Below, one piece after another: positions 8,016-21,125 of a stretch of 32,000 nt of DNA. A model generated the notes under the pieces. The model saw nothing but the letters and a program-made list of their open reading frames with translations, made no database searches and had not been told where the DNA came from. Positions within the stretch are counted from its first letter, which is position 1; each line of letters opens with the position of its first letter. The position numbers and the translations under genes were made by a program. This stretch comes from Geotalea daltonii FRC-32 (lineage in GTDB: Bacteria; Desulfobacterota; Desulfuromonadia; Geobacterales; Geobacteraceae): the NCBI RefSeq assembly GCF_000022265.1, contig NC_011979.1, forward strand, positions 870,001 to 902,000, in the 5' to 3' direction.

Positions 8016-10481
8016 ATGTTCCGCAAATACGCACGACAGATATCTGCAGTTGTTCTCTGCTTTTTCACCTGGACATCAGGGGGCGTCTTCAGCATCGCCA
8101 ATGCCGCCCAGATAGAGGCGAAGAAGGCCAAGGCGCAGCAGGTGGAAAAGAAGCCTGAGGGAGCCGAAGAGCGCTTTGCCAAGGAAACCGAGGAAGTTGA
8201 AGAGATCCTAGGTGATAAGAAGGAAGACCTGCAGACCAAAAAATGGCGCCTGCGGAAGAAGAAGGCGGAGATCGAAGCCCTTGACGTGGAAGTGCGCAAG
8301 CAGTTCGCCGAGACGGAAAAGAAGCTGAAAGATGCCAAGCTTCCCCCGGAGATCCTGGAGCGGCACCGTAAGTTCGTCAAACATTACGATGACAATTTGG
8401 CAGAACTGAAGGGCAATCTCGATATCATAGAGAAAGCCAAGGACAAGGCCGAAGCCGAAGCAGGCATGGAAAAAGCCCGCCGGCACCTGGAAAAAACAAA
8501 AGCCCCATCCCGCCATCAAAAACTCGACCCCAACAATCTCCCCCATCGTCAACCCAAGGTTATCAAGCGCGAACCGCGCATGAAAAAGGAAGAGTTCGAG
8601 AAGGACCTGAAGAAGGACAAACATGCCTGGAAGAACCAGATGCGAATTATGCTGGCATCCGCAGGCTCTACGGCCGGGCTGTTAACACCCGACGACCTTG
8701 CCGAGACCATCGAGGTGCAACTGACCCCGGAGATCAGGGCCAAGGCGCTGGAGTTGGGGAATAACCCGGTGAAGATCTATGAGTGGGTGAGGAACAACAT
8801 CGAATTCGTCCCCACCTGGGGCTCCATTCAGGGTGCCCAGATGACCATGCAGACAAAACAGGGGAATGCCTTCGATACTTCATCTCTGCTTATCGCTTTG
8901 CTGCGGACAGCCGGGATTCATGCACGTTATGTCACCGGCACCGTGGAACTGCCTATCGAAAAAATTATGAACTGGGCAGGGGGCTTTTCCGACCCCATGG
9001 CAGCGCTTGATTTCATGTCCAGCGGCGGCATACCGACAACAGCTTTAACCGCAGCGGGGAAGGTGGAAAAGGCACGGTTTGAACATGTATGGGTTGAGGC
9101 ATGGATCGATTACAGGCCTTCTCGCGGTGCAAAGCACATCAACGGCAAAGGGGATACCTGGATTCCCCTTGACCCGTCATTCAAGCAATACAACTATAGC
9201 CAGGGGATAGACATCAAAACTGCAGTCCCTTTCGATGTTCAAGCGTTCCTGACGCAGATACAATCCACCGCAACGGTAAACGAAGCAGCCGGTTACGTCA
9301 CCGGTGTCGATTCGGTCCTTACTCAGCAAACAATGCAGGACTACCAGACCAGGGTTCAGAATTACATCCAGCAGAATTACCCCAACGCCACAGTTGGTGA
9401 TGTCCTGGGTAAGAAAGAGATCATCAAAAAGGAATATTCCTACCTTCTCGGCACCCTGCCGTACAAGACTGCCGTCAAGGGTGGCAGCTTTTCAGTCATG
9501 CCAGACAGCTTCCGCCATAAACTGAGTTTCAATGTTACAACAAGCGGATTGGATGAAACACCAATCGCACTGACTATGAGCCTGCCTGAATTGGCCGGGA
9601 AGAGAATATCATTAAACTACTTACCGGCTGCAGAGGAAGATGCTGAGGTTATAGCACATTATGGGTATTATTCTGCTCCGCCATACCTAGTCAATCTTAA
9701 GCCTGTTATTTTGATCAACGGGATACCCGTGTGGTCAGCGAAAAGCGTTCCTATGGCTGCCTCGCAATTCCTCCGGCTTACATTCAGCAGCCCTAACATT
9801 TCTGACGACACTGTAATACATCCGCATGTTGCTTCTGCTTTTGTCACGATTGGGCTCAATCTGCAGAAGATAACAATTGACCAGCTTGAAAAACGTAAGC
9901 AACTGATGCAGGCGGCCACAAATCAATTAGGAAAAGAGGATGTATCCCTTGATGATCTTGTCGGAGAAGTCCTTAATATTCATGCACTTGCTTACTGGAT
10001 GTCGCTTGATACATTTAACAAAAATCTCGCTGTAAGGAGGGTTGCTTATAGCCATCTTCCGGCCGAGATGGCAGTGATGATAAATCCAATTGTTAAATAT
10101 GTGTATGGCATTCCCTGTAGTATGAGAAGTCCTGGCCTTCAACTGGATGTGAAAAGAAACATTAATGTTCGGAAATCTTTGGATGGCGTTACTTCAAGCG
10201 AAATCGGCTTCACCCTTTCCTCGGGGTTTTTATCATCCACGCTAGAGCATGGGGTTTTTGACATTCTCGATCCAGAAGGGAGGGCTATTTCAACTGTGAA
10301 AGCCCTGTCATTGGCGAATGAAGCCGGAATTCCGATATATAGTATTAATTCGTCGAATATTTCATCCATCCTACCAAAACTCAAGACATCACCTGACACT
10401 CTCGACAACATCAGGGACTCCGTCGCTGCTGGCAAAGTGGTCATTATTCCGGAGAAAAGTGTCCAGTACTACCAGTGGTAA
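8016..10481 (+). CDS. Secreted transglutaminase-like domain protein with a charged coiled-coil N-terminal region (catalytic Cys replaced by Ala)
   Basis: ATG 8016 with a GGAGGGG RBS at 8005-8011. Signal peptide MFRKYARQISAVVLCFFTWTSGGVFSIANA, then a ~200-aa K/E-rich segment. The Transglut_core-like block is QGNAFDTSSLLIALLRTAGIHARYVTG ... HVWVEAW ... WIPLDPS. The ORF-track start at 7935 lies inside repeat D and is rejected. Confidence 0.85.
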   Translation: MFRKYARQISAVVLCFFTWTSGGVFSIANAAQIEAKKAKAQQVEKKPEGAEERFAKETEEVEEILGDKKEDLQTKKWRLRKKKAEIEALDVEVRKQFAETEKKLKDAKLPPEILERHRKFVKHYDDNLAELKGNLDIIEKAKDKAEAEAGMEKARRHLEKTKAPSRHQKLDPNNLPHRQPKVIKREPRMKKEEFEKDLKKDKHAWKNQMRIMLASAGSTAGLLTPDDLAETIEVQLTPEIRAKALELGNNPVKIYEWVRNNIEFVPTWGSIQGAQMTMQTKQGNAFDTSSLLIALLRTAGIHARYVTGTVELPIEKIMNWAGGFSDPMAALDFMSSGGIPTTALTAAGKVEKARFEHVWVEAWIDYRPSRGAKHINGKGDTWIPLDPSFKQYNYSQGIDIKTAVPFDVQAFLTQIQSTATVNEAAGYVTGVDSVLTQQTMQDYQTRVQNYIQQNYPNATVGDVLGKKEIIKKEYSYLLGTLPYKTAVKGGSFSVMPDSFRHKLSFNVTTSGLDETPIALTMSLPELAGKRISLNYLPAAEEDAEVIAHYGYYSAPPYLVNLKPVILINGIPVWSAKSVPMAASQFLRLTFSSPNISDDTVIHPHVASAFVTIGLNLQKITIDQLEKRKQLMQAATNQLGKEDVSLDDLVGEVLNIHALAYWMSLDTFNKNLAVRRVAYSHLPAEMAVMINPIVKYVYGIPCSMRSPGLQLDVKRNINVRKSLDGVTSSEIGFTLSSGFLSSTLEHGVFDILDPEGRAISTVKALSLANEAGIPIYSINSSNISSILPKLKTSPDTLDNIRDSVAAGKVVIIPEKSVQYYQW

Positions 10482-10529
10482 GGGGATGGTTACATCATTC
10501 TTGATCCAAATACCGGCGCAGGTGCCTAC

Positions 10530-11072
10530 ATGATCTCTGGCGGCCTTTTGGGTGGAAGTGAAGCCTGTGGTTCTGTTGCGAGTTTTCTTGGCTATTCCAA
10601 TTATCTTACTTTGGCTGGAGGGGGAGGTGCCGGTGACTATTGTAGGAACCATGCTGACGACATCCTCGGTATACTTGCTGCTACAAAAGAAGGAATGCTA
10701 ACTTGGGTGGCGAAAGCAACCGATGCTGAAATTGTTGCGAGGTTTGGGGGGTATGTGGCCTCCAAAGCTGCAATAGTGGCAGCAGTAATACAGGTATTTA
10801 AAAACTGGGAAGACATTGTAAGACCAGAGAATAAAATTTGGCTTTTTACTTTCACTCTCTCTTTAAGCTGGCTAACAACGCTAGCTATGGGTGCTTCTAT
10901 TGAAGCAGGTGGGCCTTTTGCTGGAACTATACTTGCTCTAGAGATAGGCTTTTTTTCAATGGAAATGCTGGATAAATATGTGGCAATGTTAAAAGGTCTC
11001 GAACGTCAATCTTTCATCCCATCAAGAAGATATTTACTTAGTTCAATACGGAGCAGTTATGAGTATATTTAG
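10530..11072 (+). CDS. Hypothetical Gly-rich protein with two C-terminal hydrophobic helices; possibly the detached C-terminus of the 8016 gene
   Basis: 180 aa in the same frame as the upstream gene. It is separated from it only by TAA (10479-10481) and 16 sense codons. Hydrophobic segments are IWLFTFTLSLSWLTTLAMGASI and GPFAGTILALEIGFFSM. A weak AGGTG lies 5 nt upstream of the ATG. Low GC. Confidence 0.55.
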   Translation: MISGGLLGGSEACGSVASFLGYSNYLTLAGGGGAGDYCRNHADDILGILAATKEGMLTWVAKATDAEIVARFGGYVASKAAIVAAVIQVFKNWEDIVRPENKIWLFTFTLSLSWLTTLAMGASIEAGGPFAGTILALEIGFFSMEMLDKYVAMLKGLERQSFIPSRRYLLSSIRSSYEYI

Positions 11073-19984: not shown

Positions 19985-20029
19985 GGGGTGGCTGCAGCTA
20001 GTTCGGCTGCAGCCACCCCTCTATTTTTA
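19985..20029 (+). terminator. Rho-independent terminator closing the 8016-19961 gene string
   Basis: 14-bp GC-rich stem GGGGTGGCTGCAGC / GCTGCAGCCACCCC with a 7-nt loop, followed by TCTATTTTTA. Confidence 0.85.
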
Positions 20030-20111
20030 GCAACAGATTTTTTCTGCCTCCTAATCCGTTGTATAAAGACAAATCACTGAATTTTGCCTTCGAACTGCCG
20101 ATAAGCAAGGC

Positions 20112-21125
20112 ATGAACCAGAAATTCCCCGAATATCAGCCCTTCTTTCACAAGGGTTTGCGCATCGAGATCGGTATCCCGCAGCCAAGCGGCGACATTTT
20201 CCGTGACTGGGCCATTATCAAGGACTACCAGGAAGACACCATCCTTGTTCAGCTCTCCCGCGACTATCTCCCCGCCAATGTCAAGGTCAATGTCAGTTCC
20301 ATCCTTGACGCCAGCGTCCGCATAGATCAGCAGATTTATACCTGCACCAGCATCGTCACCGAACGTCAGGGGGAGCGGAACCTGCGCATCAGACTGTTCG
20401 GGTTGTTGACCCTGAAGGAGCGGCGGCAGTTTTTCCGTTTGGAGTGTACCTTCAATTTTCGCTTTACTGACCCGGATCTGCGTCTTCGCGAAGAGGTTGA
20501 GGCGGAGTGGCAGAATTGGCGTCAACTGGAGCTGATGAAGCTGCAAGGCTATGATGATTTTTCCGTAGCTGCCCGACAGGCGGAACACCAGGCCAACCAC
20601 CCACCACACGTCTGGCACGACAGCAGCAACATTCCGATCGTCCTTGGCGGAGGGGGGATGGGGTTTAAGCTGGACAAAAGGCTGAAACCGGAAAGCCTTC
20701 TGCACATGGAGCTGTACCTGCCGCTGTCACCGCCACGTACCATTCACACAGTGGCCGAGGTCGCCTATGTGCTTGATCCCGTAGAAACGTCCGAAAACAG
20801 CACGGTCTATTATCGTACCGGTTTTAAGTTCATTCGGTTGGAGGAGCGGGACCGGGATGATGTCTTCCGCTACATTTCCCAGATGCAGCTGATCCGGCTG
20901 AGGGAAATGAGCGAGAATCGCCCGTTTCAGTCTCCATACGATAAGGCAGAAAAACGACAAGGCGTGGACTGGGAGCGGATCTTGCTGCGCGCCCTTTATG
21001 TGCTGTTAGTGGTTGCAGTATGCCTGTGGATCGGCAAGCTGCTCCTGGCTTACCGAGAGCGGGGCAATACCAACGAAATCAAGACCATCTATGAAAAGTC
21101 CCTCAAGAAGTATCGGAAGGAATAA
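20112..21125 (+). CDS. PilZ-domain protein (YcgR-like two-barrel layout), atypical, with a C-terminal TM anchor
   Basis: 337 aa. KERRQFFRLE matches the PilZ RxxxR motif. LGGGGMGF sits where D/NxSxxG is expected. C-terminal hydrophobic helix ILLRALYVLLVVAVCLWIGKLLLAY. Confidence 0.65.
   Translation: MNQKFPEYQPFFHKGLRIEIGIPQPSGDIFRDWAIIKDYQEDTILVQLSRDYLPANVKVNVSSILDASVRIDQQIYTCTSIVTERQGERNLRIRLFGLLTLKERRQFFRLECTFNFRFTDPDLRLREEVEAEWQNWRQLELMKLQGYDDFSVAARQAEHQANHPPHVWHDSSNIPIVLGGGGMGFKLDKRLKPESLLHMELYLPLSPPRTIHTVAEVAYVLDPVETSENSTVYYRTGFKFIRLEERDRDDVFRYISQMQLIRLREMSENRPFQSPYDKAEKRQGVDWERILLRALYVLLVVAVCLWIGKLLLAYRERGNTNEIKTIYEKSLKKYRKE

Follow-up and report, generated by a model that had tools for sequence, protein, structure and literature searches.

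A probable three-gene cassette for a Sec-dependent polymorphic toxin with an inactive transglutaminase in Geotalea daltonii FRC-32

Analysis of a 32,000-nt stretch of the genome of Geotalea daltonii FRC-32 (positions 870,001 to 902,000 of NC_011979.1; hereafter the window, to which all coordinates refer) indicates that the locus starting at 8016 and closed by a terminator-like hairpin near 20020 is probably a polymorphic toxin cassette. It would be Sec-dependent, belong to the 'inactive transglutaminase' kind and comprise three genes: a gene for a scaffold-toxin, a gene for a membrane-associated immunity protein and a gene for a giant protein headed by a toroid. The first gene would specify an exported scaffold (leader, helical bundle, transglutaminase-like (TGase-like) domain devoid of the catalytic Cys, and a novel domain) that carries, after a fixed motif, an exchangeable C-terminal domain (CT) acting as the toxin. 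The scaffold would be exported by Sec, the toxin would act in the periplasm or in the membrane of neighbouring cells, and the product of the second gene (open reading frame 3, ORF3) would shield the producer's own envelope. The giant may be an adhesin-like stalk that would dock the scaffold, by its N-terminal half, on the toroid and so display or deliver the toxin at the surface. The features on which this proposal is built are as follows, together with the evidence used for each.

8016..10481, + strand: scaffold part of the toxin gene (Pfam, homologues, structure and fold search)
8715..9215, + strand: Cys-less transglutaminase-like core (PF01841 and column counts in 110 homologues)
9573..9695, + strand: putative recombination breakpoint, approximate, at aa ~520-560 (identity shift and drop in GC at third codon positions)
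10473..10559, + strand: junction (pre-toxin) motif, W-stop-GDGYIILDPNTGAGAYMISGGLLGG, cut by the in-frame TAA at 10479-10481 (homologue alignment)
10560..11072, + strand: variable C-terminal domain of 170 aa, presumed toxin module, within Geob_3852 (identity 0.02-0.10 to homologues)
11059..11883, + strand: ORF3, 274 aa, in the immunity-gene position (position and family-level co-variation)
11940..19961, + strand: giant partner, 2,673 aa (Pfam domains, synteny)
12027..12794, + strand: predicted alpha/alpha6 toroid of the giant (tblastn, AlphaFold2 (AF2) model, PDB fold matches)
19985..20029, + strand: terminator-like hairpin and T-run closing the cassette (hairpin scan)
20112..21125, + strand: PilZN1-PilZ protein with a C-terminal transmembrane helix, a neighbour outside the cassette (Pfam, 0/77 related loci, position beyond the terminator)

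The ORFs were re-checked, and the layout that had been drawn from the sequence in the original prediction was reproduced in all its coordinates and junctions. ORF1 (8016-10481, + strand, 821 aa) ends with a TAA codon and its product is 100% identical to P0001, a 'transglutaminase/protease-like domain protein' of Geotalea daltonii FRC-32. ORF2 (10530-11072, 180 aa), annotated as Geob_3852, begins with ATG 48 nt after this TAA and in the same frame; ORF3 (11059-11883, 274 aa) overlaps it by 14 nt, and the giant gene (11940-19961, 2,673 aa) starts 56 nt after ORF3 with a GTG codon and the ribosome-binding site AAGGAGGG. A hairpin with a 15-bp stem containing 11 GC pairs (19985-20019), followed by a T-run and located directly 3′ of the stop codon of the giant, is the sole strong terminator-like hairpin on the + strand, the weaker matches occurring at the level of shuffled sequence (14 found, 14.6 expected); the statement that no terminator precedes 19985 is thus upheld, as are the domain assignments (Transglut_core, CARDB, FG-GAP and PilZ), which are borne out by Pfam. 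What has to be revised is the count of four genes, because ORF1 and ORF2 are one gene cut by a nonsense codon.

If the TAA at 10479-10481 is read through, the sequence becomes YYQW-stop-GDGYIILDPNTGAGAYMISGGLLGG, i.e. KVVIIPEKSVQYYQW-stop-GDGYIILDPNTGAGAYMISGGLLGGSEA, and the stop falls inside a junction motif found throughout the family, GW.G[C/D]GYI..[ND]P.TGAGAYMISGG..G. The homologues are about 1,000 aa long, their junction motif is uninterrupted, and the column that aligns with the window's stop is a variable one, occupied by V, I, N, T, S or R. Since read-through of the TAA gives the family-conserved motif, ORF1 and ORF2 are two pieces of one ancestral gene (8016-11072, ~1,018 aa) split by the nonsense codon. 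An assembly error at this place was ruled out by an independent assembly (L082; Logan, SRR9436588), which is 100% identical over 9,505 nt, TAA included, so that the stop codon is genuine in the strain; the same ORF layout is seen in a second run, SRR29904083. Programmed read-through at a conserved site was also considered and found no support, the column of the TAA being variable and the split genes of other loci being broken elsewhere. Because the TAA separates the toxin domain from the leader and the scaffold, the toxin of strain FRC-32 is most likely disarmed, i.e. a pseudogene accompanied by an intact immunity gene and an intact giant; the alternative is that ORF2 is translated separately from the ATG at 10530. 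A side observation concerns aa 823 (nt 10482-10484), which is Cys in most homologues (GW.GCGYI) and Asp or Glu in the window, P0006, P0007 and L030; the residue at this position appears to divide the family into two scaffold-end types.

The boundary between scaffold and CT was analysed by comparison of the window protein with 110 homologues. The fraction of residues identical to the window protein lies at 0.4-0.9 for most of aa 1-550 and at 0.25-0.55 for aa 551-825; it is 0.63 over the junction motif (aa 826-850) and only 0.02-0.10 beyond it (after aa 848), where the aligned homologues continue with tails of 88-172 aa that are mutually unrelated. The alignment therefore reads as a sharp transition from conserved to exchangeable sequence at a fixed motif, which is what polymorphic toxins require. 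A Pfam scan of 55 CTs from related loci revealed NlpC/P60 in nine of them (best E 2.7e-14), CHAP in five, Peptidase_C92 in two and prokaryotic phospholipase A2 (PLA2) in one (E 3.9e-6), together with weak matches to SLT, to the colicin pore-forming domain and to Tox-ART; the CT of L079 has a weak precomputed match to Peptidase_M15_3, and that of P0113 is of the CHAP type. As far as can be predicted from these matches, the toxin-type domains of the related CTs all act on the cell envelope. The CTs of the NlpC/P60 type are followed by proteins of 311-351 aa with a single transmembrane segment or a leader, one of which matches an SBBP beta-propeller repeat and another a YARHG domain. Tandem arrays, with at least two genes for transglutaminase-like scaffolds (TG genes), were found in 28 of 70 loci, and orphan 3′ fragments, made of a scaffold end, a different CT and a small ORF of their own, in L027, L055, L059, L064 and L077; there is no orphan cassette in the window itself.

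Two further observations bear on how such loci are surrounded. The TG toxin array of L002 / L009 (1-9714) lies directly downstream of genes for TnsA, TnsB, TniB and TniQ/TnsD (Tn7-like) and for a group II intron reverse transcriptase, and TG cassettes may travel as transposon cargo. The giant/TG cassette is directly preceded by a tyrosine recombinase gene in L004 (727-1566) and also in L079 (4248-5144), a locus unrelated to the first.

Full-length TG genes are generally followed by a small gene: in 50 of 55 cases there is, within 300 nt and on the same strand, a non-conserved ORF (median gap 4.5 nt, median length 195 aa), and a hydrophobic, transmembrane-like segment is present in 46 of these 50 ORFs. 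Among 1,540 pairwise comparisons, similarity of the CTs predicted similarity of the downstream ORFs (10 jointly similar pairs, one of which is a duplicated locus; odds ratio 86, p = 1.6e-13). ORF3 occupies this position and has one or more N-terminal hydrophobic segments; it belongs to no Pfam, NCBIfam or PADLOC family, and an iterative HMM search of all loci found for it a single homologue, which occupies the corresponding place in L030 (25% identity, E 3e-20). From its place, and from the co-variation seen at the level of the family, ORF3 is a probable immunity gene. The original prediction had spoken of two low-GC membrane ORFs, and the low GC content is indeed there (0.44 in ORF2 and 0.40 (0.395) in ORF3, versus 0.55-0.60 in flanking genes); the two ORFs themselves are better described as the variable CT and the probable immunity gene.

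The toxin gene of the window is a recombinant. From aa 1 to ~520 its product is 90-100% identical to P0003, a paralogue of the same genome, or to the metagenomic P0002; past aa ~520-560 the identity falls to 25-50%. The GC content at third codon positions is 0.63 for aa 1-550, 0.44 for aa 551-821 and 0.33 for the CT. The 3′ half of the gene resembles the minority 'type B' scaffold end (IIPE.S.QY..W.G[DE]G) of P0006, P0007 and L030. The gene is thus a mosaic, and its low-GC 3′ half, like ORF3, looks imported.

The scaffold begins with a leader (aa 1-30) that is signal-peptide-like, as seen by inspection only, and continues with a helical bundle (~50-160), a low-confidence linker (166-233), the TGase-like domain (234-400) and a novel beta/alpha region (401-821). 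Pfam Transglut_core (PF01841) matches aa 236-387 with an E value of 9.6e-18; the PDB fold matches (3isr, 3kd4 and PeiP) are restricted to this core, and the Foldseek matches to 3isr and 3kd4 confirm the TGase fold. That the nucleophile is missing, as had been noticed in the original prediction, holds for the whole family. In the window protein, Ala285, within the motif QGNAFD, stands instead of the Cys, His357 and Asp386 being kept, and in the 110 homologues the corresponding residue is Ala (93), Asp (11), Ser (5) or Val (1), so that Cys is absent from all of them; there is no variation at Asn284, Asp287 and Asp386, and His357 is found in 109. Because all 110 homologues lack the nucleophile, the domain is not a protease of the LapG type. 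No Pfam family was found for aa 400-820 even at E <= 10, and the ~450-aa region going from the TGase core to the junction motif had no match by Pfam, by PDB profile search or by Foldseek, where only the TGase core was matched. There is no RHS match by Pfam in the scaffold protein, and neither this protein nor ORF2 or ORF3 has a match in NCBIfam or PADLOC; no paper on the cassette was found in the searchable literature, in keeping with the earlier opinion that no characterised system combines these elements. The family is large: the search detected 1,414 proteins (E <= 0.001), and the GTDB species representatives contain 226 stretches that match.

In the giant, Pfam identifies a toroid (SQHop_cyclase/prenyltransferase) at the N-terminus, CARDB in seven stretches, and FG-GAP/FG-GAP_3; NCBIfam domain matches are all sub-threshold and there is no PADLOC match. 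The approximate order is leader, toroid (~30-285), CARDB (~286-880), FG-GAP propeller (~880-1420), CARDB (~1420-1760), MG/A2M-like region (~1760-2040), five fn3/Ig_Rha78A_N-like repeats (~2040-2560) and a C-terminal domain. The leader is signal-peptide-like and of the Sec type; like that of the scaffold, it was recognized by inspection only. The original prediction had announced signal peptides on two of the products. As a side remark, GC content is 0.50 in the region encoding FG-GAP (14001-16000) and 0.55-0.58 in the rest of the gene, a hint that the giant itself may be mosaic.

The association of the two proteins was studied by clustering all the ORFs of 77 related loci, which span Geobacteraceae, Desulfuromonadaceae, Nitrospirota/Thermodesulfovibrionales, Smithella/Syntrophaceae, Nitrospinota, Deferribacteres and Undibacterium. 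Two gene families, and no others, recur: TG, in 75 loci, and the toroid proteins, in 46 (toroid tblastn matches are found in ~50 of the 77). All 59 toroid matches are on the strand of the TG gene, and a toroid protein is present in 18 of the 23 loci having at least 5 kb on both sides. A reciprocal look-up gave the same result, since the three toroid proteins examined all adjoin TG genes; one of them, a 361-aa protein made of a toroid and a dockerin, lies beside an RHS-type relative (L081). The canonical order is TG gene, small ORF, toroid protein, but the latter is sometimes upstream, as is the 2,662-aa giant of L004. Toroid proteins are 124-2,898 aa long (from crude ORF calls, some of which are cut by contig ends) and vary in their repeat types (CARDB/FG-GAP, CarboxypepD_reg, MG2); the toroid is the one part of the giant that nearly every partner protein has, and an MG-like region in the middle is shared in many loci as well. 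The TG gene and the toroid-headed giant are thus a conserved, co-oriented pair across phyla, the point that the original prediction had proposed to check; the PilZ gene is present in none of the 77 loci.

The AF2 model of the toroid is a single alpha/alpha6 barrel (pLDDT 90, pTM 0.84). Its best PDB matches are single-domain proteins resembling squalene-hopene cyclase, 8pak/8paj (TM-score 0.70 for 8pak), followed by prenyltransferase beta subunits and then TEP1 (rank 46). By inspection, it contains neither a DxDD motif (NLDTA is found where DxDDTA is expected) nor a CGEQ thioester motif. A class II terpene cyclase (squalene-hopene cyclase) was considered for this domain: the fold fits, the catalytic motif is missing and the domain follows a secretion leader. 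Since both motifs are lacking, the toroid would most plausibly be a binding module. In a mirror-tree comparison of 27 TG-toroid pairs, the divergence of TG aa 1-400 tracks that of the toroid (rho 0.31-0.54), the corresponding values for aa 401-848 being 0.06-0.12, and the two halves of the TG protein are mutually uncorrelated. This is suggestive of a resident part, formed by the 5′ half and the giant, and of an exchangeable part, formed by the 3′ half, the CT and the immunity gene.

Several observations weigh against the proposal of a toxin cassette. The CT of the window, which has hydrophobic helices near its C-terminus, finds no Pfam match even at E <= 10, and no known toxin or immunity family was matched by either this CT or ORF3. 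An exhaustive HMMER search of 1.84 billion proteins detected five representatives of the CT family, all of them TG-type proteins or fragments (the TG homologue P0006 carries this type of CT at aa 880-1036), and none on another toxin scaffold; a word-index search returned the CT itself only. The co-variation of CT and downstream ORF fails for the window's own pair: the ORF3 homologue of L030 follows a CT without detectable similarity to that of the window, and the relative of the window CT in L004 precedes an unrelated ORF. Because the relatives have such non-matching partners, the cognate relation between the window CT and ORF3 rests on position only. As to the giant, 5 of the 23 well-flanked loci have no toroid gene, the neighbourhoods of the 77 loci have no conserved gene for an outer-membrane component or a secretion machinery, and the mirror-tree result is suggestive only, because shared phylogeny is a confounding factor. 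Lastly, the multi-transmembrane nature of many CTs could mean that they are stop-transfer membrane anchors of a Sec-exported protein.

This last point leads to another explanation, namely an envelope or adhesion complex in which a structural TGase-like protein, located in the periplasm or at the surface and anchored in the inner membrane, would have a fast-evolving C-terminal transmembrane region, a small membrane partner and a giant adhesin, the variability being due to relaxed constraint or to diversification of surface antigens. It would account for the transmembrane-like segments found in 40 of 56 CTs (three or more in 22), for the membrane-type character of 46 of the 50 downstream ORFs, for the adhesin-type CARDB and FG-GAP domains of the giant, for the lack of conserved secretion machinery nearby and for a window CT without toxin-family match. 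We nevertheless hold it to be unlikely, because 16 of the 56 CTs have no transmembrane segment at all, because others are enzymatic and of toxin type (NlpC/P60, CHAP and PLA2, with the weak Peptidase_M15_3), and because beyond the sharp boundary at the fixed motif the tails are non-homologous rather than drifted. It is equally at odds with the orphan 3′ cassettes and tandem arrays, with the fusion of the same scaffold to an RHS cage in L081 and with the imported look of the low-GC 3′ segment.

A defence system of the envelope resembling alpha-2-macroglobulin (A2M), in which the TED-like toroid and the MG-like domains of the giant would form a protease trap and the inactive TGase would be a cofactor, as in bacterial A2M operons, is very improbable: sub-threshold Pfam matches of the giant to TED_complement (E 0.001) and A2M (E 0.0017), MG2 matches in partner proteins and the presence of TEP1 among the fold matches speak in its favour, but the toroid has no CGEQ motif, is N-terminal instead of lying inside the chain, behind an MG-domain series and a bait region, and finds its best fold matches among toroids of the terpene-cyclase or prenyltransferase type, and the hypervariable toxin-domain CTs with their co-varying downstream ORFs would be left unexplained. 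The thioester/A2M and terpene-cyclase readings are both rejected since the catalytic motifs are missing.

There is just as little chance that the locus works in the manner of the Lap system, an analogy drawn in the original prediction, according to which a periplasmic TGase-like protein would act on a giant adhesin and cyclic di-GMP (c-di-GMP) would intervene through the PilZ protein. As with LapG/LapA/LapD, a protein of the transglutaminase superfamily is encoded beside a giant, repeat-rich surface protein and the two genes are truly linked; the PilZ protein does have, by Pfam, PilZN1 and PilZ domains, and also a C-terminal hydrophobic helix that would span the membrane. The analogy is largely refuted, however, by the missing catalytic Cys in all 110 homologues, by the Pfam match to Transglut_core, no BTLCP/LapG family being listed, by a giant with a Sec-type leader and no RTX or type I secretion system (T1SS) signal, and by the absence from the window of LapD-like or T1SS (ABC/MFP/OMP) genes. 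Nor does the c-di-GMP link stand, the PilZ gene being beyond the strong terminator with the 15-bp stem and absent from the 77 related loci; it is an unrelated neighbour outside the cassette.

Motifs that demarcate the exchangeable CT are VENN in CdiA and DPxGL in Rhs proteins. The proposed toxin cassette resembles CdiB/CdiA/CdiI and Rhs systems in having such a marker (here GAGAYMISGG..G), a probable immunity gene directly downstream, orphan CT-immunity modules and 3′ ends that are replaced by recombination. It differs from contact-dependent growth inhibition (CDI) and Rhs systems in that there is no TpsB/CdiB transporter, no filamentous haemagglutinin (FHA) repeats and no PAAR/VgrG, and in that the toxin chain does not itself include the long filamentous element, a role which here falls to another protein, the giant. 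With further diderm examples of Sec-dependent polymorphic toxins, such as MafB/MafI of Neisseria (see also Table 1 of PMC3482391), it would share a signal peptide, a conserved N-terminal module, a variable CT, an immunity gene, tandem and orphan cassettes, and the lack of a dedicated secretion machine alongside; the N-terminal modules are not related, that of MafB being DUF1020 and that of the window a helical bundle plus a TGase-like domain, and a conserved giant accessory gene is found here.

The closest precedent is provided by Zhang et al. 2012 (Biol Direct 7:18; PMC3482391), in whose polymorphic toxins an inactive transglutaminase domain is found near the N-terminus. There it comes directly behind a signal peptide or a transmembrane helix and ahead of RHS repeats, and it was proposed that it anchors the toxin through peptide binding. 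The window family has in common with these toxins the Sec-type leader, a TGase fold with an incomplete triad, variable CTs, some of toxin type in the relatives, and a probable immunity gene. Unlike them, it has no RHS repeats, the CT coming directly after the novel ~450-aa region ending in GAGAYMISGG, and its TGase domain does not follow the leader immediately but starts at aa ~234, behind ~200 aa of helical bundle and linker. The searchable text of PMC3482391 does not contain 'prenyltransferase', 'CARDB', 'FG-GAP' or 'Geobacter', and the toroid-headed partner gene is not mentioned there. A link between the two types is offered by a distant relative, L081, in which a TGase scaffold is followed, after an apparent frameshift, by the same junction motif (YEWNGAGYILFDANTGEGQFLIEGALSGG), then by DUF6531/RHS/YD-shell, DPQGL and a CT rich in transmembrane segments; in this locus (10001-19161) the protein with toroid and dockerin comes first, the scaffold, motif, RHS and CT parts just listed come next, and a pair of small ORFs comes last. 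RHS-caged relatives are thus seen to have the toroid partner as well. From the L081 link, the window family can be taken as an RHS-less version of the inactive-TGase toxins, with the CT placed on the scaffold itself. On the sequence evidence, then, the locus would be a new RHS-less variant of a known system, and the conserved giant partner is not reported in the searchable literature.

At this stage we may only speculate about a wider role. TGase scaffolds and toroid-headed giants could together form an undescribed Sec- and contact-dependent delivery apparatus of Geobacteraceae, Nitrospirota and related anaerobes, in which the N-terminal toroid of the giant fibre would hold the scaffold by its N-terminal half and present exchangeable envelope-targeting warheads to cells nearby, and which would be distinct from type V secretion (T5SS)/CDI, from type VI secretion (T6SS) and from Rhs, the toroid adaptor serving RHS-caged relatives as well. 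This is a tentative idea, less likely than not.

Some features of the DNA around the cassette are worth recording. A stretch at ~5000-8000 has a GC content of 0.44-0.51, versus 0.58-0.62 in the upstream cysDN genes, and contains a gene for an HTH_3 regulator (5375-5827, minus strand), one for a stand-alone response regulator (~6300-6725) and a PDDEXK_3 gene; this stretch and the cassette may together be a single acquired island, with the terminator near 20020 as its end. Around the PDDEXK_3 (GxxExxY-type) ORF (7268-7705), four copies of a ~145-nt repeat unit are found between 7024 and 8000, each of which contains an imperfect inverted repeat (TGGGACGCGGAT / ATCCGCAGTTTCCGCGTCCAA); the TG start codon comes 16 nt after the end of the last copy. 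The unit has no Rfam match, the Rfam scan of the window having given zero matches, and may be either an element of the REP/MITE kind (repetitive extragenic palindrome or miniature inverted-repeat transposable element) or a regulatory hairpin. Downstream of the response-regulator ORF, at 6935-6975, there is also a 20-nt palindrome that is nearly perfect (AAGTGTAAAAATTTTTTACA / TGTAAAATTTTTTTACACTT).

Interbacterial antagonism is almost unexplored in Geobacter, in Nitrospirota and in syntrophic deltaproteobacteria, organisms which matter in subsurface metal reduction and in nitrification-linked and methanogenic communities. If the locus is what we propose, this large family would provide a tractable case of polymorphic toxins exported through Sec in diderm cells, comparable to the MafB-type toxins. 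There are also consequences for annotation: Geob_3852 would be the toxin tip cut off from the gene before it and ORF3 a probable immunity gene, and, more generally, the label 'Transglutaminase domain-containing protein' would in these taxa hide toxin cassettes. Finally, the toroid-headed giant, co-oriented with the TG gene and linked to it by two-way synteny, is a concrete candidate for the display or delivery component, and its alpha/alpha-toroid, if this is true, would be a new type of adaptor for toxins.

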